Positions 3,272 to 27,809 of a stretch of DNA of 37,235 nucleotides are shown in pieces. The notes under the pieces are model-generated. The model was not told the origin of the DNA and made no database searches. It worked only from the letters and a program-made list of their open reading frames with translations. A program made the position numbers and the translations under genes. The DNA lies in the NCBI GenBank assembly GCA_018302745.1, contig JAGVZH010000014.1:1-37235 (forward strand), in the 5' to 3' direction. Numbering within the stretch: the stretch's first letter is position 1; each line of letters begins with the position of its first letter. The stretch comes from Candidatus Woesearchaeota archaeon. Its GTDB lineage: Archaea; Nanobdellota; Nanobdellia; SCGC-AAA011-G17; JAGVZH01.

Positions 3272-3357
3272 AGCCCCTGGTGAGAATTGAACTCACGACC
3301 TTTACCTCTTTAGATATATTACCAAGGTAATGCTCTAACCAACTGAGCTACAGGAGC
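3272..3357 (-). tRNA. tRNA-Thr (anticodon GGU) with a 12-nt intron at 37/38
   Basis: The minus strand folds by hand as: GCTCCTG TA GCTC AGTTGGTTA GAGC A TTACC TTGGTA [ATATATCTAAAG] A GGTAA AGGTC GTGAG TTCAATT CTCAC CAGGGGC T. Acceptor, D, anticodon and T stems all pair. Intron CTAA pairs with loop positions 32-35 (UUGG), leaving a 3-nt bulge at the 3' splice site. Confidence 0.85.
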
Positions 3358-3371
3358 GTATGAAAATAAAA

Positions 3372-3457
3372 TGTGGAGGACAGGATTTGAACCTGCGAAC
3401 GGACTAACCGACAGGATCTTAAGTCCTGCGCATTTGACCAGGCTTTGCTACCTCCAC
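3372..3457 (-). tRNA. tRNA-Leu (anticodon UAA), class II
   Basis: The minus strand folds as: GTGGAGG TA GCA AAGCCTGGTCAAA TGC G CAGGA CTTAAGA TCCTG TCGGTTAGTCCGTTC GCAGG TTCAAAT CCTGT CCTCCAC A. It has a long variable arm and discriminator A. It lies 14 nt upstream of tRNA-Thr(GGU), so the two are probably co-transcribed. Confidence 0.9.
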
Positions 3458-3482
3458 ATTAAAACAGTCTTTGTAATAAATA

Positions 3483-16049: not shown

Positions 16050-17351
16050 TTGAATTTTATGTCAAAAGAAGGTGATATAGTAGAAGTAATAAAATCAGAT
16101 AATAGCAAGATAAAAGGAATTCTGATGCATTCCCATTCTAAAGATTCTAATGTAGTAAAGTTATCTTCCGGTTATAATCTAGCTATTAATAAAAACAAAA
16201 TAAAAAATATTACAATTTTAAAAAAACTTTCCAAAAATAAAAAAGAAAAGATAAAAATCAAGCATAAAAAAGGATTAAAAACTGTTGCAGTTTTGCATAC
16301 AGGAGGGACAATTGCTTCAGAAGTTGATTATGAAACTGGTGCTGTAACGCCAAGATTCTCTCCTGAAGAACTAATTGAAATGTTTCCTGAAATAGAGGAG
16401 ATTATTAATGTTAAATCAAGGCTAATTGCAAATATTTCTTCTGAAGACATGAACTTCTCTCATTATAATTTACTAGCAAAAGAGATTGAAAAGGAAGTTA
16501 AGGAAAAAGTTGATGGCATTATAATAACTCACGGCACAGATACAATGCATTATACTTCTGCTGCTTTATCATTTATCCTTGAGAATTTAGACATCCCAGT
16601 TGTTTTAGTAGGCTCACAAAGGTCTTCTGACAGGGGCTCAACAGACGCGAAAATAAATTTAATTTCTGCAGCTAGGTTTATTGCTGAAACAGATTTTTCA
16701 GAAGTCACAATCTGCATGCATGAAAATATGGAAGACAAAACATGCTTAATTTTTCCTGCATGTAAAGTCAGAAAGATGCACACTTCAAGAAGAGATGCTT
16801 TCAAGACAGTTAATGTAAAGCCGTGGGCAAGAGTTCATTACAAAGACAGAGTTGAAATCTTAGACAGCAGATTCAGGAAAAAGGAGAATAGAAAATTAAA
16901 ATTAAATTTATTCAAGGAAAATTTGAAGGTTGGATTTCTAAAGGCCCACCCAAATATGAAAGCTGATGAAATCAGGATGTATTCAAATTTTGACGGTTTG
17001 GTTTTAGAAGGATATGGAATGGCAGGAAATCTCCCTATAAACAAAACAGACAAATTAACTGCAGAAAATGAAATGATATTAAATGAATTGAAGAAATTGG
17101 CTTCAAAAATTCCTGTTTTAGCAGTTTCTCAGACAATATTTGGAAAGATAAACATGAATGTTTACTCTACTGGAAGATTAATGCAGGAAATTGGAATTTT
17201 GGGAAATTTATTGGATATGACTCCAGAAACAGCTTTTATTAAATTAGCTTGGTTATTAAGCAATCATCCAACACAAGTAAAAGAACTTCTATCCCATAAT
17301 TTAAGGGGAGAACTATCAATAAGATTAAATGAAACTGATTTTATAGAATAA
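16050..17351 (+). CDS. gatD: Glu-tRNA(Gln) amidotransferase subunit D
   Basis: 433 aa. It has an N-terminal beta-domain then an asparaginase-like core (LHTGGTIAS, HGTDTM). The start could instead be the ATG at 16059. Confidence 0.88.
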   Translation: MNFMSKEGDIVEVIKSDNSKIKGILMHSHSKDSNVVKLSSGYNLAINKNKIKNITILKKLSKNKKEKIKIKHKKGLKTVAVLHTGGTIASEVDYETGAVTPRFSPEELIEMFPEIEEIINVKSRLIANISSEDMNFSHYNLLAKEIEKEVKEKVDGIIITHGTDTMHYTSAALSFILENLDIPVVLVGSQRSSDRGSTDAKINLISAARFIAETDFSEVTICMHENMEDKTCLIFPACKVRKMHTSRRDAFKTVNVKPWARVHYKDRVEILDSRFRKKENRKLKLNLFKENLKVGFLKAHPNMKADEIRMYSNFDGLVLEGYGMAGNLPINKTDKLTAENEMILNELKKLASKIPVLAVSQTIFGKINMNVYSTGRLMQEIGILGNLLDMTPETAFIKLAWLLSNHPTQVKELLSHNLRGELSIRLNETDFIE

Positions 17352-17352
17352 A

Positions 17353-18714
17353 ATGAATTTTAATAAGAATTTAAAAGATTATGCAAGGAGTATTATTCCA
17401 ATATACACAAAAGAATTAATTGATTTGGTTAAGATTCCAAGCATAAGCCATGGAAATAAAAACAAAAAAGATCTTCTAAATATCCTAAAGAAAATATCAA
17501 AAACAACAAAAAAATACGGCTTTAAAACAAAAATAATAGAGACAAAAGGGAACCCAGTTTTTGTGGGAATTTTAGAAACAGGAAAGAAAAAGCCATGGCT
17601 GACAATATACAATCATTTGGATGTCCAGCCTGCAAAGGAAAAAGAATGGAAAACAAATCCTTTTAAGCCAATTGTAAAACAAGGAAAAGTAATAGGCAGG
17701 GGTACAACAGATGACAAAGGACCTGCTTTAACAATCATCCATGCTATAAACTTTCTAAAAAAATACAATTATGAAATGCCAAACATACAATTAATTTATG
17801 AAACAGAAGAAGAAATTGGCAGCCCTAATTTTGGCTCTTTTCTTAAAAAAAATAAGCTAAAAACTCCTGACTCAATTTTAATTTCAGATACTTTGTTTCA
17901 GGGAAAAAATCCATCTTTAACATACAGATTGAGAGGGATTCAGGTTTTAGAATTAGAACTAGAAACCGGCAAAAAAGAGCTTCATTCAGGTGTTTTGGGA
18001 AATGCAGTAAAAAACCCTTTAAACATTTTAATTGATGCTTTGTCAAAATGTGTGGATGAAAAAAGGAATGTGTTGATACCAGGATTTTATGATAATGTTA
18101 AAAAGATAAAAGGAAGAGAATTAAAGGAATTAAAAAACGTTGCAAAAAGATTCAGCCTAAAAAAATTTAAAGATGATACTAAAGCTGAATTATATGAAGA
18201 AAATCCTCTGAAATTATTATTCAACATCTGGTATAAGCCAAGTTTTGAAATTCACGGCTTTGAAGGCATCCAGTATGAGCCCAATGTTATCAAGACTTCT
18301 ATTCCGAATAAAGTTAAGGCTAAAGTTACTATTAGATTAGTTCCTGGACAAAAACCAAAAGAAATAGTTAAAAAACTGCAAAAACATGTTAAAAAAATTC
18401 ATCCAAAAATCAAAGTTATTACTCTGGATAGTGTAGAGGCAAGTGTAACAGATATTAATAATAAATTTATGGTTAAGGCAAAAGAAGCCTGTAAGTATGG
18501 ATTTAACTTAGAGCCGTTATTTGTTGCAACAGGAGGGACAATTGGATCTGTTCATCATTTTCAGAAAGCTTACAAAAAGCCAATAATACTAATAGCCCAA
18601 AGCTTATTGTCAGATGGCTATCATGCCCCAAATGAGTATTTTTCATTAAAACAGGCTGAAAAAGGTATAAAAACAATGGCAAAATACATTAATAGCATAG
18701 CTGATTTTGATTAA
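17353..18714 (+). CDS. M20-family metallopeptidase (dipeptidase-like)
   Basis: 453 aa. YNHLDVQPA...W..NPF and GRGTTDDKGP are typical of M20/ArgE/DapE/CPG2-type enzymes. Confidence 0.8.
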   Translation: MNFNKNLKDYARSIIPIYTKELIDLVKIPSISHGNKNKKDLLNILKKISKTTKKYGFKTKIIETKGNPVFVGILETGKKKPWLTIYNHLDVQPAKEKEWKTNPFKPIVKQGKVIGRGTTDDKGPALTIIHAINFLKKYNYEMPNIQLIYETEEEIGSPNFGSFLKKNKLKTPDSILISDTLFQGKNPSLTYRLRGIQVLELELETGKKELHSGVLGNAVKNPLNILIDALSKCVDEKRNVLIPGFYDNVKKIKGRELKELKNVAKRFSLKKFKDDTKAELYEENPLKLLFNIWYKPSFEIHGFEGIQYEPNVIKTSIPNKVKAKVTIRLVPGQKPKEIVKKLQKHVKKIHPKIKVITLDSVEASVTDINNKFMVKAKEACKYGFNLEPLFVATGGTIGSVHHFQKAYKKPIILIAQSLLSDGYHAPNEYFSLKQAEKGIKTMAKYINSIADFD

Positions 18715-18911
18715 ACTCTGACTTCCAGTTCTTTTAGTCTTTCTTTTAATCCTTTTATAATTGTCTGACCTAAATAAATATATTCTTTTTTCAAATGAGA
18801 AGAGTTTTTTAATACATTCTCAATTCCTTTAATCTCTGCTTCTATAGCTCCAGGGACTTCCCACAGATCCTTGCACACTTTTTCTGCTACTTTATATTCC
18901 TTGCTTGCCAT
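18711..18911 (-). CDS. Hypothetical small protein
   Basis: 66-aa ORF. It is convergent with the M20 gene, and the two stop codons share one TTAA. Confidence 0.4.
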   Translation of the reverse strand: MASKEYKVAEKVCKDLWEVPGAIEAEIKGIENVLKNSSHLKKEYIYLGQTIIKGLKERLKELEVRV

Positions 18912-18970
18912 AATATGGCTATGTTTAAATAATATATAAGCTTTATTAAACTATGATATAGATAAAAATA

Positions 18971-19546
18971 TTATTTTATAATTATTACCGCATAACCTGA
19001 TCCATGTTCATAAACGTTGACATTATATTTACGGAATAATTTTTTAATTTCCTCTGGTGGAAAAAATATACAGCCTTTTTTCCTCTCAAAGAGTTCTGCC
19101 ATACGTCCTAAAAACCATTTATTGGGATTTAAGTCTATAATAATAATTTTCCTGTTTTTCTTCACAACTCTTATCATCTCTTTAGATATTTTTTCATATA
19201 AATTTATTTTATTTTTTTCTGAACCTTCGCTGAAATGATGAAAAGAAGCTACACAATAAACTAAATCAAATGTATTATTCCCATAAGGTATTTTGTCTGC
19301 TTTTCCAAGCTTTTTAACAATTCTTTTATCCCTGACCAAATCCAACATTTCTTTTGAAGGATCTAAAATAACTGTCTTATAGCCATTCTTAGCAAAAAAT
19401 TCGGCAATTCTTCCTTCTCCGCCACCCAAATCAAGAACCTTGCCTTTTTCCAGATTAAGAATGCTTCTTAAAGCTTTATAGGTTTTTCCAGATCTTCCAA
19501 ATATCCTTAAAAAAATAGAATGCATCCTGGCACTAATTTTATTCAT
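18971..19546 (-). CDS. Class I SAM-dependent methyltransferase
   Basis: 191 aa. Motif I is VLDLGGGEGRIAEFF, with post-I ILDPS. Confidence 0.8.
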   Translation of the reverse strand: MNKISARMHSIFLRIFGRSGKTYKALRSILNLEKGKVLDLGGGEGRIAEFFAKNGYKTVILDPSKEMLDLVRDKRIVKKLGKADKIPYGNNTFDLVYCVASFHHFSEGSEKNKINLYEKISKEMIRVVKKNRKIIIIDLNPNKWFLGRMAELFERKKGCIFFPPEEIKKLFRKYNVNVYEHGSGYAVIIIK

Positions 19547-19580
19547 CCTTAAATTTATATACTAAAGCTATATAAATCAT

Positions 19581-19664
19581 ATGGTGATTTCAATAAAAGA
19601 ATTCTTAAACAAAATCAAATGGTCTAATGAGTTTGACAAGGAAAATATTACCAGGAAATACTGA
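19581..19664 (+). pseudogene. 5' part of a DUF504/UPF0248 (MJ1316-like) gene, interrupted by foreign DNA
   Basis: MVISIKEFLNKIKWSNEFDKENI is the typical family N-terminus (..LNKIKW..). It then runs into compositionally different sequence and stops at 19662-19664. Confidence 0.6.
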
Positions 19665-19846
19665 AGAATTCCCAGAGGATAAAAGAAAAGCTTTCAGAGA
19701 GCGAGGAGATTGTAAAACGGCTCAACAAACTCAAAATAGAGGAAGAAAAAGAGTTTGAGAACTGGTGCGCCCAGCTTGAGGACATAGAAAGAAAACTGAA
19801 CTATCTCGACAGGGTAATTTTTGAAGAGGGAGGGATGGCGAGATGA
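19655..19846 (+). pseudogene. 3' fragment of a coiled-coil protein gene (no start), inside the foreign block
   Basis: The frame is open from 19637 with no ATG. It reads ...EILKNSQRIKEKLSESEEIVKRLNKLKIEEEKEFENWCAQLEDIERKLNYLDRVIFEEGGMAR*. Codon usage is richer in G/C-ending codons. Confidence 0.45.
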
Positions 19847-19950
19847 ACGGAAGAGCGGAGATGCCTGTTTTTGTAAAGATTGGGGAGTACAAGGACATTA
19901 TGGACATTCTTCATCTCACCACCGCGGACGTGTCGGAGTGGTCAAACTAA
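19843..19950 (+). pseudogene. Short ORF (35 aa), probably a truncated gene start, running into the tRNA
   Basis: MNGRAEMPVFVKIGEYKDIMDILHLTTADVSEWSN. It overlaps the preceding fragment by ATGA. Its last 27 nt are the 5' end of the tRNA, so it is unlikely to be intact. Confidence 0.3.
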
Positions 19951-20087
19951 ACATTGTTTGGCAGGATAGGTGCTAAACATCTAAACTCAAGTTATTTGAG
20001 TGATGAGGCTTCACAAAGGCCGATGAAATGCTCTATGGGCCATCTGTTGGCTTAGTGCCTACGCAGGTTCAAATCCTGCCGTCCGCA
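19924..20087 (+). tRNA. Intron-containing class II tRNA, probably tRNA-Leu (CAA); the fold is only partly resolved
   Basis: The acceptor is perfect (GCGGACG / CGTCCGC) with discriminator A. The T arm is GCAGG TTCAAAT CCTGC. The variable arm T GGC TTAGT GCC TAC parallels the native tRNA-Leu. The D-loop motif AGTGGTCAAA is present. CTCAAG (19986-19991) pairs through CTCA with TGGG (20036-20039), followed by a 3-nt bulge, as expected for a 37/38 intron. About 80 nt are extra. Confidence 0.6.
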
Positions 20088-20133
20088 TTTTATATTAGAA
20101 AATTATATAAACCGGGAATGATTTTCCTTTACC

Positions 20134-20694
20134 ATGGCATTAAGCACATTAACAGTAACATTAATTGTTCTTGGGGCCATAGTTTTGTTTATCATACTCC
20201 TTTTCAATGCGCTGATAAGGCTCAAGAACCAGATAGAAAACTCATGGGCGCAGATAGATGTCCAGCTTAAGAGAAGGGCTGACCTTATCCCGAATCTTGT
20301 AAATTCCGTAAAAGGATACATGAAGCATGAAAAAGGAGTTCTTGAATCTGTGACAAAAGCAAGAACCTCTTTCCTTAATGCAGGGGCTGACATGGGCAAG
20401 AAAGCAAAGTCATCCGACATGCTCAGCAATGCACTGAAATCATTGTTTGCAGTAAGCGAGAACTACCCCAAACTGCAGGCGTCGCAGAATTTCCTACAGT
20501 TGCAGGAGGAGATTACAGGAACAGAAAACAAAATATCCTATGCAAGGCAGCATTACAATGACATGGTGATGCATTTCAATACCAAACTGCAGACATTCCC
20601 AAACAACACGATTGCAGGAATGCTTCACTTTACAAAAAAACAGATGTTTGAAGCAGAAGCTTCTGAGAGGAAAAACATAAAAGTTGAGTTCTGA
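20134..20694 (+). CDS. lemA: LemA-family protein
   Basis: 186 aa. It has an N-terminal TM helix, then NSWAQIDVQLKRRADLIPNLV...YPKLQASQNF..LQ..L...EN.I...R..YN, the classic LemA pattern. Confidence 0.85.
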   Translation: MALSTLTVTLIVLGAIVLFIILLFNALIRLKNQIENSWAQIDVQLKRRADLIPNLVNSVKGYMKHEKGVLESVTKARTSFLNAGADMGKKAKSSDMLSNALKSLFAVSENYPKLQASQNFLQLQEEITGTENKISYARQHYNDMVMHFNTKLQTFPNNTIAGMLHFTKKQMFEAEASERKNIKVEF

Positions 20695-21542
20695 TGATAA
20701 TAGCCTTTGATGAGGTTAGAAACAATAAGATTAAGTCTGTCATTCTTATTTCATTTTTTATAATTCTTATAGGTTTTTTTGGGGCTGTGCTGGGGCTTTA
20801 TTATGGTAGCATTTATTTTGGATTGATATTCTCAATCATTGCAGGAATAATCTACACATTGCTTGTCTTTAACGCCGGCTCCAATATGATTCTTTCAATG
20901 AGCGGAGCCAAGCCTGTGACCAAGCAGGAATATCCTCATTTATACCATACTGTTGAAGGTCTAGCAGTTGCTGCCGGCCTGCCAAAACCAAAATGCTACA
21001 TTATTGAGGACAGCGCATTAAATGCTTTTGCAACAGGAAAAGACCCGAAGCATGCATCAATTACAGTAACAACAGGATTATTGAGCAAGCTAAAAAGACA
21101 GGAATTGGAAGGGGTAATCGGCCATGAGATGAGCCACATAAAGAACTACGACATCCGCTTCATGATGCTTGTTACTGTGCTTATCGGTGTTGTTACCTTT
21201 ATGAGTGATTTCCTGCTGAGGTCTTTCCTCTGGGGTGGCCATGGTAGAAGAAGGGACAGCGGCTCTATCGGAATAATTTTAATTTTGATTGGGATAGTAT
21301 TGGCAATACTCTCACCGCTGATAGGATATATGATAAGAGCTGCAATCAGCAGGAAAAGGGAGTTTGCAGCAGATGCCAGCGGGGCTGTACTGACAAGATA
21401 TCCTCCTGGTTTAGCTGATGCACTCGAAAAAATAAGCGGGGATCCGGACCCATTGGTTGACAAGGCAAACAAGGCAACCGCGCATTTGTTTATCTCGACA
21501 CCCATATATTCGCAACCCACCCTCCGATTCATGAAAGAATAA
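20694..21542 (+). CDS. htpX: HtpX-type M48 zinc protease, frameshifted at the 3' end
   Basis: 282 aa in the track. It has HEMSHIKNYD (HExxH) and EFAADASGA. The canonical C-terminus FATHPPIHERIKRLRAM* is encoded in the +1 frame at 21509-21562. It overlaps lemA as TGATG. Confidence 0.8.
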   Translation: MIIAFDEVRNNKIKSVILISFFIILIGFFGAVLGLYYGSIYFGLIFSIIAGIIYTLLVFNAGSNMILSMSGAKPVTKQEYPHLYHTVEGLAVAAGLPKPKCYIIEDSALNAFATGKDPKHASITVTTGLLSKLKRQELEGVIGHEMSHIKNYDIRFMMLVTVLIGVVTFMSDFLLRSFLWGGHGRRRDSGSIGIILILIGIVLAILSPLIGYMIRAAISRKREFAADASGAVLTRYPPGLADALEKISGDPDPLVDKANKATAHLFISTPIYSQPTLRFMKE

Positions 21543-21595
21543 AGAGACTCAGGGCGATGTAGACAAATAGATTTTTATATAATCGCTTTTCTATA

Positions 21596-21808
21596 ATGCT
21601 TATAACTCTGAAAATCTGCGCAGTAAGCGGCCACAGTGAAATAGGCAGGAATACGACTGCTGTGAAAGTTGACGATGAAGTTGTAATTCTCGACATGGGC
21701 CTGCACCTTCCAAACTATATCAAGTACACCGAAGAAGGCATGGAGGAAGTTGTGAAGGCAAGCAATAATGCTTTGAGGAAAGTCAATGCCATTCCTAATG
21801 ATAAGATT
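21596..21808 (+). pseudogene. 5' fragment of an archaeal RNase J (beta-CASP/metallo-beta-lactamase) gene
   Basis: MLITLKICAVSGHSEIGRNTTAVKVDDEVVILDMGLHLP....AIPNDKII matches the RNase J N-terminus. It ends before the HxHxDH motif, where composition drops back to native. Confidence 0.55.
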
Positions 21809-21973
21809 ATAAAAGACAGGTTAGAAAAAAAGCTAAAGCCTTTAAAGCTTAAGGAAATAAAGATAGAAGGAAACTTTTTAATACATGAAGAATCTGAAAT
21901 ACCTTTACGTAGGATAAAAGAAGTAAAAGAAAGAGGTAAAATAATATGGAGAAGGTCAATTACGAAAAATTAG
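21806..21973 (+). pseudogene. 3' part of the interrupted DUF504/UPF0248 gene
   Basis: ...KDRLEKKLKPLKLKEIKIEGNFLIHEESEIPLRRIKEVKERGKIIWRRSITKN carries the family C-terminal signature IP.(H/R)RI..(I/V)...G..IW.R. The track fuses it in frame to the RNase J fragment as ORF 21596..21973. Confidence 0.6.
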
Positions 21974-23367
21974 GTTTTAAGTGTGGTATTGAAATCCATC
22001 AACAAATTGAAAGCCACAAATTATTCTGCAAATGCCCTTCTCTAGTAAATGATCCTAATGAAGAAAAAATAACTATTCAGAGATATTTAAGAGCTCCGGC
22101 AGGAGAAACAGGGCATATTGATATAGCAGCATTGCATGAATTAAAAAAAGGAAAATACTTTGTTTATGAAGCAAAACCAACTTCTAGCTGCCAAGTTGAG
22201 TTAGATGAATCACCGCCAGAAGAAATAAATCATGATGCATTAGAAACATCTTTGCAGGTAGCTTTAATTTTAAATTGTGATTTAGTAGATGAAGTAATAT
22301 TTATGAGAAAAACAGTAATTGATGGCAGCAATACCTCTGGATTCCAAAGAACAGCTTTAATCGGATTAAATGGTTATGTAAATACATCAAAAGGAAAGGT
22401 AAAAGTAGAAACAGTCTGTTTAGAAGAAGAATCAGCTAAAAAAATAAATGAGGATGAAAAATCAGCAAATTATAGCTTAGACAGACTTGGTGTTCCTTTA
22501 ATAGAAATTGCAACAGATGCTTCAATAAAAGACCCGGAGCATTGCAAAGAAGTTGCTTCTTACTTAGGGATGGTTTTGAGGTCAACTGGAAAAGTTAAGA
22601 GAGGTTTAGGCACTATAAGGCAGGATGTTAATTTATCAATAAAAGGCTCTTCAAGAGTTGAATTAAAGGGTTTTCAGGATTTAAGATCAATACCAAAAGT
22701 AATTGAAAATGAAGTTAAAAGATTAACAAGATTAAAAGACCATAAGCCTGAAGTGAGAAAAGTAGAGCCGAATTTTATGTCTATATTTTTAAGACCAATG
22801 CCTGGTTCATCAAGGATGTATCCTGAAACTGATATAAAGGAGATTTCAATAACAAAAGATTTACTGGCAAAAATTTCTATTCCTGAATTAATAGATGAGA
22901 AAGCATTAAAATTAGAAAAAGAATATAATTTAAATTCTTATTTGGCGAGAGAGTTGATAAAATCTAATGTTAATTTTGATTTATACAAAACAAAGTTTGA
23001 AAAATTACTGCCTTCTTTAATAGCTTCAATACTTGTAGAAATTCCAAAGGAAATAAAAACCAGGTTTAATCTTGATTATAAATTTAAGGAATCTGATTTT
23101 GATTTTGTTTTAAGTGCATTAAATCATGGAAGAATCCCAAAAGACTCTGCTTTGGAAATATTAACAGAGATAGCAAAAGGAAAAAGACCAAATTTAGACA
23201 AATACACATCTGTTGATGAAAAAGAGCTTGAAAATTATATCAAAGAACTGGTAAAGAAAAACAAAGAACTTTCTATAAATGCATTAATGGGTATGGTAAT
23301 GAAACACTATAAAGGCTCTGTAGAAGGCAGTTTAGCTATGAAAATATTAAAAAAATATCATAAATGA
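21946..23367 (+). CDS. gatE: Glu-tRNA(Gln) amidotransferase subunit E (short form)
   Basis: 473 aa. It has LGFKCGIEIHQQIESHKLFCKCPS, GTIRQDVNLSI, RPMPGSSRMYPETD and a YqeY-like tail. It is about 140 aa shorter than the GatE proteins I know of. Confidence 0.85.
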   Translation: MEKVNYEKLGFKCGIEIHQQIESHKLFCKCPSLVNDPNEEKITIQRYLRAPAGETGHIDIAALHELKKGKYFVYEAKPTSSCQVELDESPPEEINHDALETSLQVALILNCDLVDEVIFMRKTVIDGSNTSGFQRTALIGLNGYVNTSKGKVKVETVCLEEESAKKINEDEKSANYSLDRLGVPLIEIATDASIKDPEHCKEVASYLGMVLRSTGKVKRGLGTIRQDVNLSIKGSSRVELKGFQDLRSIPKVIENEVKRLTRLKDHKPEVRKVEPNFMSIFLRPMPGSSRMYPETDIKEISITKDLLAKISIPELIDEKALKLEKEYNLNSYLARELIKSNVNFDLYKTKFEKLLPSLIASILVEIPKEIKTRFNLDYKFKESDFDFVLSALNHGRIPKDSALEILTEIAKGKRPNLDKYTSVDEKELENYIKELVKKNKELSINALMGMVMKHYKGSVEGSLAMKILKKYHK

Positions 23368-26972: not shown

Positions 26973-27809
26973 TGGCTACTTCAATATGGATTATTTTAAG
27001 AATAATTCGGTTGATACTGTGTTTAATTTTTTTTAAGTATCCATCCTCCCAAGCATTCCGATAAAGATATTCCCTCAAATTATGGCTTAAAATATGATAA
27101 TATATCTTTTATGACATCTGACGGAATAAAGATAAAGGCTTGGTTGATTACCTCTAAGAAGGCCAGTGGAACTGTAATAATCGGTCATGGATATCCTTTT
27201 AATAAAGGGAACATACTGCATGTTGCAAAATTTCTTTATCCTGATTATAATCTCGTTTTTTATGATCACAGGTATTTTGGTGAAAGCTCTGGATTTATAA
27301 CTACTGTTGGCTTTAAGGAAGTAAAAGATATAGAGGCCACTATAAAATTTGTAAAGGAAAGATTTGGTAAAAAAGAGCCTATCGCACTATATGGATTTTC
27401 TCTTAGTGCATCAGCAATGATCATGTCTAAGGCAGATGTCAATGCAATTATAGCTGATTCATCATATGCTGATTTGAGTAGAATGATAGAGCACACATAT
27501 TCAATATTTGGTTTTTTAAAATATCCTTTCGTTAAAACTACGGAACTTTATTCTATAATATTTTTAAATATCCATCCTAAAGAAGTTTCTCCAGCTTTGG
27601 CTATTAAAGACACTAATGTACCTTTGTTTGTTATTCATGGAGAAAAAGATAGCCAAATTCCGGTTGAAAATGCATATGCATTAAAAGAAAGCAATCCTAA
27701 TATAGAACTTTGGATAGCGAATGGTAGTGATCACGGTCAAGCTTATGCCCTTTACAAAGATGAATATACTAGTAGAATTAAATCATTTTTGGAAAAACAT
27801 ATGAAATGA
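26972..27809 (+). CDS. Membrane-anchored alpha/beta hydrolase (esterase/lipase-like), split by a frameshift in a T8 run
   Basis: Track ORF 27111..27809 has the nucleophile elbow YGFSLSA, plus HGEKDS and GSDHG (Ser-Asp-His). That frame stays open upstream to 27027 without an ATG. A second frame from the ATG at 26972 (TAATG overlap with acpS) encodes the TM helix MATSIWIILRIIRLILCLIFF. The two frames meet at tttttttt, 27027-27034. Confidence 0.7.

Follow-up and report, generated by a model that had tools for sequence, protein, structure and literature searches.

How did a 2159-nt block of compositionally foreign DNA come to lie within a small archaeal gene? The question is raised by a 37,235-nt contig (the whole of this stretch is called the window below) from the metagenome-assembled genome (MAG) of a "Candidatus Woesearchaeota archaeon", whose LemA protein is recorded as MBS3145563.1. 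The window carries housekeeping genes (ATP-dependent DNA ligase, ftsZ, gatD, gatE, primase PriS, tRNAs). A gene of the MJ1316/DUF504 family, just 5' of gatE, is cut in two by the block, and every gene in the block has the same orientation as DUF504 and gatE. Our analysis indicates that the block is likely to have been captured from a related archaeon by non-homologous joining, probably mediated by microhomology.

The original prediction placed the start of the native DUF504 gene at 19581 and its tail at 21810-21973, and stated that deleting 2159 nt would restore 77 codons. Indeed, in-silico removal of 19651-21809 gave an in-frame 77-residue protein, with a register ambiguous by the common ATTA. 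This repaired protein matched Pfam PF04457 practically end to end (model positions 3-75 of 75, 42.6 bits, E=1e-10), with the curated cut-off of the family at 26.3 bits; the C-terminal part alone scored 26.3 bits. The N-terminal part, MVISIKEFLNKIKWSNEFDKENI, has the LNKIKW motif of the family, as in intact homologues adjoining gatE in relatives, and the C-terminal part reads (I)KDRLEKK...EIPLRRIKEVKERGKIIWRRSITKN. When aligned with three intact homologues that sit just upstream of gatE in other Woesearchaeota, the repaired protein shared their invariant D, R, IPL, R, EV and W columns. The full-length PF04457 match, the LNKIKW motif and the position of the homologues just upstream of gatE demonstrate that the split gene is genuine and not a chance resemblance. 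The breakpoints fall at 19650/19651 and 21809/21810, and the empty-site junction would read ...GAAAATATTATAAAAGAC.... The repaired protein has 3 residues fewer than the family alignment, exactly at the joint, and a small loss of target bases, a few at most, may have occurred there. At its other end, the frame of the C-terminal part (...KDRLEKKLKPLKLKEIKIEGNFLIHEESEIPLRRIKEVKERGKIIWRRSITKN) terminates 28 nt within gatE, so that the two genes overlap.

The claim of a sharply different composition was confirmed for both tetranucleotides and codon usage. The G+C content of the block was 41.8%, compared with a mean of 32.0% (standard deviation (sd) 2.0, maximum 36.4%) in all other 2159-nt segments, and its tetranucleotide distance from the rest of the window gave z=8.4 against those segments. 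Since G+C content alone may mirror amino-acid content (native ftsZ locally reaches 44%), third codon positions were chosen for comparing genes. Their G+C fraction (GC3) was 0.468 in lemA, 0.426 in htpX, 0.479 in the RNase J fragment, 0.523 in the coiled-coil tail at the left end and 0.629 in the 35-codon open reading frame (ORF) that follows it. The 37 native ORFs had a mean GC3 of 0.267 (sd 0.045, maximum 0.361), with ftsZ at 0.258. Along the ORF that fuses RNase J to DUF504, GC3 dropped from approximately 0.5 to approximately 0.2 near 21790-21840. The synonymous-site composition of the block is thus far beyond the range of the recipient.

All the parts announced for the block (a gene tail, a 35-codon ORF, an intron-bearing tRNA, lemA, htpX and the head of an RNase J gene) were found, the last of these amounting to 71 codons. 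The gene tail and the 35-codon ORF are parts of two adjacent paralogous coiled-coil genes, here named ccA and ccB. By tblastn, the ccA tail matched the C-termini of 118-234-residue proteins encoded 5' of tRNA-Leu and RNase J in Woesearchaeal loci; in Pfam it gave only a weak PUMA_CC match, and the Pfam search assigned no family to the coiled-coil genes. In relatives, ccB proteins have 75-96 residues and are followed by a ccC gene and a spacer, then by the tRNA. Because relatives have the rest of ccB, ccC and the spacer 5' of the tRNA, approximately 0.7 kb is missing within the block. Many Woesearchaeota conserve this trio of uncharacterised genes, none with a Pfam family, 5' of tRNA-Leu and RNase J; the N-terminus of its second gene reads PVFVKIEEYKDIL.

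The htpX gene had been described as frameshifted. The frameshift is present in this contig but is not a feature of the insert. It results from a 25-nt deletion near 21501-21503, which is private to this contig by comparison with L001-L004, L161 and L162, and which replaces the conserved HtpX C-terminus FRKKHGISHIFATHPPIHERIKRLRAM. All other assemblies encode an intact 297-residue HtpX with the conserved FATHPPIHERI C-terminus, and an exact look-up of the frameshifted protein returned no record elsewhere. A T-run is found 3' of htpX. Further downstream, the RNase J fragment is 77% identical to the RNase J N-terminus encoded downstream of the closest HtpX (locus L009), and 41-59% identical to others. 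The TTTTTATATAA element ahead of its start is likely to be an archaeal TATA box/B recognition element (BRE), and a conserved CTTTTTATA was found 5' of RNase J in three loci (L009, L138 and L083).

From which organism was the block derived? A search with the intact HtpX returned thousands of homologues, with a best non-self identity of 87%, a next best of about 76%, and then 70%. The named homologues belong to Woesearchaeota or Nanoarchaeota, as do the nearest homologues of LemA (82-87% identity). The 87% HtpX is that of L009, where the RNase J gene begins 40 nt downstream of htpX; the lemA-htpX adjacency is also found in L006 and L007. A metagenome scan with the 3' exon of the tRNA retrieved 79 loci, in many of which tRNA-Leu is preceded by a pair of paralogous coiled-coil genes plus one more small gene, and followed by RNase J. 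The block is therefore a slice of a normal Woesearchaeal neighbourhood, to judge by these comparisons, with arbitrary ends and one internal deletion. The original prediction took it for a captured piece of archaeal chromosome, possibly from the host. The first part holds, as the Woesearchaeal genes, their conserved order and their GC3 point to chromosomal DNA of another archaeon. Nothing suggests a host origin, and the donor looks like a related Woesearchaeote.

The tRNA gene of the block was missed by ARAGORN in default mode and by Rfam at the gathering score (27.6 bits, under that score). When it was aligned with 15 homologues and intron-less tRNA-Leu genes, three conserved exons emerged, among them a 7-nt micro-exon, ACTCAAG, corresponding to nucleotides 31-37, together with compensatory changes at pair 28-42 of the anticodon stem. 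The same splicing produced perfect tRNA-Leu(CAA) cloverleafs in seven relatives, and the spliced 84-nt product of the block was called as a class II tRNA-Leu(CAA). Two stem mismatches were noted in this product (C11xT24 and T30xC40), and its cloverleaf energy was -24.5 kcal/mol, against -33.6 kcal/mol for a relative, that is, 9 kcal/mol weaker. On the 5' side, the native upstream region is replaced by the ccB fragment. Moreover, in strain L161, a 36-nt deletion flanked by GCT/GCT (window 19972-20007, near position 923 of L161) takes out the anticodon micro-exon. Because the upstream region is replaced and the anticodon exon is deleted in one strain, the block tRNA is probably non-functional. 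A contig from another sample, L162, starts exactly at window 20008, which suggests that the site is polymorphic.

Other treatments of this tRNA were discarded. ARAGORN with the -i option called a tRNA-Pro(TGG) with a single 69-nt intron, but the class II variable arm and A73 are unfit for Pro, and the comparative data indicate Leu(CAA). Enumeration of introns from bulge-helix-bulge motifs and cloverleafs gave many equally scoring solutions and was dropped. An Rfam search in E-value mode did not detect the two-intron tRNAs of the relatives, and hence provided no yardstick for degeneracy. The gene belongs to a Woesearchaeal family of two-intron tRNA-Leu(CAA) with a 7-nt micro-exon, with members in the window and in L154, L093, L099, L103, L109, L084 and L150. 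Default ARAGORN and Rfam miss members of this family, and ARAGORN -i reports them as Gln, Pro or Phe.

The two ends of the block were then compared with their counterparts in relatives. A donor-type gene is truncated at each end by comparison with full-length relatives, leaving the ccA tail on the left and the 71-codon head of RNase J on the right. The tetranucleotide ATTA is present at both junctions. At the right breakpoint, the RNase J gene of L009 reads GATAAAATTATTGAAGAC where the target has AATATTATAAAAGAC; the RNase J of this relative has ...AATGATAAAATTATTGAAGAC at the breakpoint, and runs on as ...AIPNDKIIEDWREKVKAIIPSHGHLDH where the window changes to DUF504. Judging from L009, which is a relative and not the donor itself, the donor probably shared the 5 nt ATTAT with the target at the right junction. 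Microhomology-mediated patching, as originally proposed, is deduced from ATTA at both junctions and from the RNase J of this relative, not from the donor itself. The right junction cannot be fixed to the base. A position further to the right was considered, as the window has IIKDRLEKK where RNase J relatives have IIEDWREK; judging by the D-R that is invariant in DUF504 and by the GC3 profile, the junction lies within about 21806-21830. A 17-nt similarity between 19676-19692 and 21818-21834 (D14, 14/17 identical) was evaluated as a repeat; it is A-rich and offset from the junctions, and was taken as chance.

The present ends might not be the original ones. A larger foreign insert could have been trimmed later, or the insert could have been gained by homologous recombination from a relative that already carried it. 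One internal deletion, from ccB to the tRNA, is already present in the block, and strain deletions of 25 and 36 nt continue within it. However, the DUF504 halves directly adjoin the block and lack no more than 3 codons, which would be a rare outcome of later trimming, and no relative beyond this 99.5%-identical population is known to carry the insert. Because both halves of the gene survive with so little missing, the block ends appear to be primary joints, and we regard later trimming or recombination as improbable.

A remnant of a mobile element that used an integrase or transposase, for example a tRNA-associated integrative element that lost its mobility genes, is somewhat less probable still. 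In this case the ATTA on either side of the block would be a 4-bp target-site duplication, and the rearranged upstream side of the tRNA, with the head of ccB fused to its 5' end, would fit as well. The original prediction found no integrase, transposase or terminal repeat, and our searches agree: Pfam detected no integrase, transposase, or tyrosine or serine recombinase gene among the block ORFs or in the precomputed hits within ±10 kb, the block ends share neither terminal inverted repeats nor att-like direct repeats beyond chance matches, and the block gave no match to phage records. Moreover, the cargo consists of ordinary chromosomal genes in the order found in many Woesearchaeota, cut at both ends, and the insertion lies in a protein-coding gene rather than in a tRNA. 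Finally, the deletion of the mobility genes would have had to halt exactly at both DUF504 halves.

The sharp compositional step, in a window that is a MAG contig, might also have been created by an assembler splicing in a block from another organism. The exact LemA protein was indexed in 51 blocks of a public assembly collection, and all 23 of the contigs read showed the same context: methyltransferase (on the minus strand), short ORF, LemA, M48 peptidase, 125-residue ORF, GatE and primase. They include a 115-kb MEGAHIT k141 contig (ERZ4903055), a 50-kb JGI contig (3300025121), an ANAN16 scaffold (SAMN03842440) and a single-run Logan contig (SRR2090153); the ANAN16 scaffolds with both junctions come from two BioSamples. 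All of these contigs are 99.5-99.7% identical to the window. The left junction was found at 100% identity in a Logan contig from SRR2090173, the right junction in the contig from SRR2090153, and altogether the junctions recur in at least 6 assemblies from differing runs and assemblers. Two more records have the insert with two LemA substitutions (SAMN03202998 and SRR1658465, "groundwater metagenome"). As the junctions share just 4 nt, k-mer (De Bruijn) graph contigs can traverse them only if the reads do. In addition, the flanks are the two halves of one gene, in frame, and the three strain variants in which the insert was seen, including those with private indels, all retain it. The insertion is therefore real, as the original prediction had held more likely, and an assembly or binning chimera is effectively refuted, short of read-level checks.

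Intragenomic duplication, in which the recipient's own tRNA-Leu/lemA/htpX/RNase J locus was copied into DUF504, is just as improbable as a chimera: although the recipient is a Woesearchaeote and probably owns a homologous locus, the GC3 of the block (0.43-0.63) is 3.5-8 sd above all 37 native ORFs, conserved ones such as ftsZ included, and exact LemA look-ups gave one context only.

The pre-insertion state of the site was approached through GatE relatives, which were taken from a one-genome-per-species collection and belong to Woesearchaeota or Nanoarchaeota. In the two closest ones, L023 (GatE 81%, FtsZ 88%) and the closed genome CP066683.1 (66%), gatD is directly followed by gatE. In L020 the order is gatD-DUF504-gatE, and in L019 and L028 DUF504 lies 0.7-1.3 kb 5' of gatE. 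Nothing resembling the block was found in the gatD-gatE interval of the relatives examined, so that the sign named in advance as contrary to an insertion, the same genes at the same site with intact ends, was not seen among them. This lineage has an expanded gatD-gatE interval (window 16059-23367, viewed together with L010, L023 and L020); an M20 peptidase, a 66-residue ORF and a methyltransferase, all native in composition, lie between gatD and DUF504.

Several observations weigh against capture by microhomology-mediated joining. A 4-nt match is not rare in AT-rich DNA, and a 4-bp target duplication that some element left behind would account for it equally well. No near-identical donor was found by HtpX protein search, 90%-identity cluster membership or the metagenome scan with the tRNA 3' exon, which returned only the recipient population and relatives of at most 87% identity; because there is no donor sequence, the best non-self HtpX being the one at 87%, the microhomology at the junctions cannot be verified. 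An uninterrupted DUF504 allele, which the original prediction had proposed to look for, did not turn up: when 5.8 billion proteins were searched with the repaired DUF504, the sole match was a shortened call of the fusion ORF, with no empty-site allele, and the closest relatives have no DUF504 at the site. The polarity of the insertion consequently rests on the family comparison and on composition. Finally, although the assemblies are independent, they represent a single population: the samples named groundwater or aquifer, together with the ANAN16 names, point to one aquifer system. PMC7414124 lists SRR2090153 as an aquifer sample.

Even so, capture of related-archaeon DNA by non-homologous joining accounts best for the locus, and the following course of events may be proposed. 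A break or a replication template switch would have occurred within DUF504, just 5' of gatE, in an ancestor of the groundwater Woesearchaeote population. A linear chromosomal fragment of a different, GC-richer Woesearchaeote would then have been joined non-homologously into the gap, with joints probably mediated by microhomology through ATTA or ATTAT at both ends. This fragment would stem from the conserved ccA-ccB-ccC, tRNA-Leu, lemA-htpX and RNase J neighbourhood, cut at arbitrary points, and one more deletion inside it would have joined ccB to the tRNA. Archaea do perform microhomology-mediated end joining (MMEJ), with the replicative primase among the routes (PMC12019639, PMC12281630).

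Because strain-private deletions are found inside it (25 nt in htpX, 36 nt in the tRNA), the insert predates the diversification of the strains and is decaying in places. The sampled population is fixed for the insert, whose decay now proceeds bit by bit in single strains. Strain-level indels were also observed elsewhere: a 15-nt indel at the 3' end of ftsZ (window 14604), an in-frame 15-nt gatE deletion in L161 (window 22515-22529) and, among assemblies of the population, a 12+11-nt indel at window 27008-27024 with substitutions clustered near 27010.

The insertion separates the native DUF504 promoter region from the 3' part of the gene and from gatE. Since the block and DUF504 have the same orientation, the right end of the block would supply the promoter and start codon of RNase J. 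The resulting ORF, RNaseJ(1-71)::DUF504(24-77), is in frame, runs over the gatE start, and may have kept gatE expressed; it is called as a gene in all other assemblies. Tentatively, and with less than even confidence, we propose that the captured promoter and start codon replaced the severed DUF504 promoter and kept the essential gatE transcribed and translationally coupled, so that the insertion survived and became fixed. If true, the locus would exemplify, in nature, the capture of a promoter and start codon acting as a filter on which random DNA patches persist. As a side possibility, the RNaseJ-N::MJ1316-C chimera of 125 residues might itself be a new expressed protein.

Coordinates of the features at the interrupted DUF504 gene. 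Positions are those of the window, except in the last row, where each locus precedes its own positions.
Feature	Position	Strand	Basis or remark
AT-rich TATA-like promoter region of native DUF504 (TTTATATA...TATATAAA)	19554-19576	+	read from sequence; putative promoter function
MJ1316/DUF504 N-terminal fragment (native)	19581-19650	+	23 codons + 1 nt; ORF as found reads through to stop at 19664
ATTA, left junction	19647-19650	.	shared with 21806-21809
Foreign block, 2159 nt	19651-21809	+	register ambiguous by 4 nt; GC, GC3 and tetranucleotide outlier
ccA, last 64 codons of coiled-coil gene, start-less	19652-19846	+	tblastn
35-codon ORF	19843-19950	+	codons 1-26 = head of ccB (PVFVKI.EYKDI motif); last 9 codons and stop from tRNA 5' exon
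tRNA-Leu(CAA), two introns	19924-20087	+	exons 19924-19954, 19985-19991 (ACTCAAG), 20042-20087
tRNA-Leu(CAA) introns	19955-19984 (30 nt), 19992-20041 (50 nt)	+	comparative alignment
lemA, intact, 186 residues	20134-20694	+	PF04011, E=8e-61
htpX (M48 peptidase)	20694-21542	+	PF01435; frame shifted in this contig
TTTTTATATAA element	21571-21582	+	14-25 nt upstream of RNase J start; putative function
RNase J gene (archaeal), codons 1-71	21596-21808	+	sequence comparison with relatives
Chimeric in-frame ORF, 125 residues	21596-21973	+	RNase J residues 1-71 + last 54 residues of DUF504
ATTA, right junction	21806-21809	.	shared with 19647-19650
MJ1316/DUF504 C-terminal fragment (native)	21810-21973	+	GC3 0.226, in line with native genes
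gatE (native)	21946-23367	+	PF02934 + PF02637; GAGGT motif 9-13 nt 5' of ATG
Coiled-coil trio, examples	L093 4434-5444; L138 59-1192; L103 8507-9731; L099 483-1816		

Some further features of the window were recorded. The region upstream of DUF504 (19554-19576) resembles that upstream of lemA (20089-20111), with a double TATA-like element (TTTATAT...TATATAAA) and 78% identity over 23 nt; the resemblance probably reflects a promoter layout that is general in the group. On the minus strand, positions 3-2299 contain five tandem paralogous ORFs with N-termini of the MKKG(I/V)SPLIA... type, which we take to resemble those of archaeal pilin-like proteins with class III signal peptides. Also on the minus strand, Rfam detected a tRNA at 3272-3357 (61 bits) that was unreported by ARAGORN and adjoins a tRNA-Leu(TAA) at 3371-3458.

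The locus provides a natural substrate for asking how end joining works in organisms with minimal sets of repair genes. It also makes the early decay of transferred DNA visible, through the strain-private deletions in htpX and in the tRNA. Moreover, it calls for caution in annotation, since the fragments are listed as normal genes by NCBI and other pipelines, and the two-intron tRNA escapes tRNA finders at default settings. The event is a clean example of an already known kind, gene transfer by non-homologous joining, and overturns no current understanding.

Capture of filler DNA at double-strand breaks is known from illegitimate recombination in naturally transformable bacteria and from nuclear mitochondrial DNA (NUMT)-type insertions in eukaryotes. 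As in DNA capture by non-homologous end joining (NHEJ) or MMEJ (for archaeal MMEJ, see PMC12019639 and PMC12281630), the fragment is arbitrary and its genes are cut at both ends, there are no mobility genes or terminal repeats, few bases are shared at the junctions, and little or no target sequence is lost. Here, however, the recipient is an uncultured DPANN archaeon, the donor appears to be a related Woesearchaeote, and the microhomology is deduced. Experimental studies of archaeal MMEJ have dealt mostly with deletions, whereas the present case is an insertion of foreign DNA.

Integrase-mediated islands at tRNA genes are similar in their foreign composition and in the presence of a tRNA gene, which here lies inside the block; but no integrase or att repeats accompany it, and the target is protein-coding. 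Insertion sequences and transposons likewise interrupt genes and leave a short identical flank, as ATTA does here. In contrast to them, the block has no transposase or inverted repeats, and carries a stretch of housekeeping chromosome whose outermost genes are truncated. The tRNA is comparable to multi-intron archaeal tRNAs spliced at bulge-helix-bulge motifs, as it and its relatives have introns at the non-canonical 30/31 and the canonical 37/38 positions; the block copy differs by its two stem mismatches, its lost upstream region and the deletion of the anticodon micro-exon in one strain. Finally, DPANN genomes gain genes from co-occurring archaea (PMC7414124). Such transfer is usually deduced from gene trees, whereas here one event has left a scar that can be read to the base pair, and the partner appears to be another DPANN lineage rather than a host.

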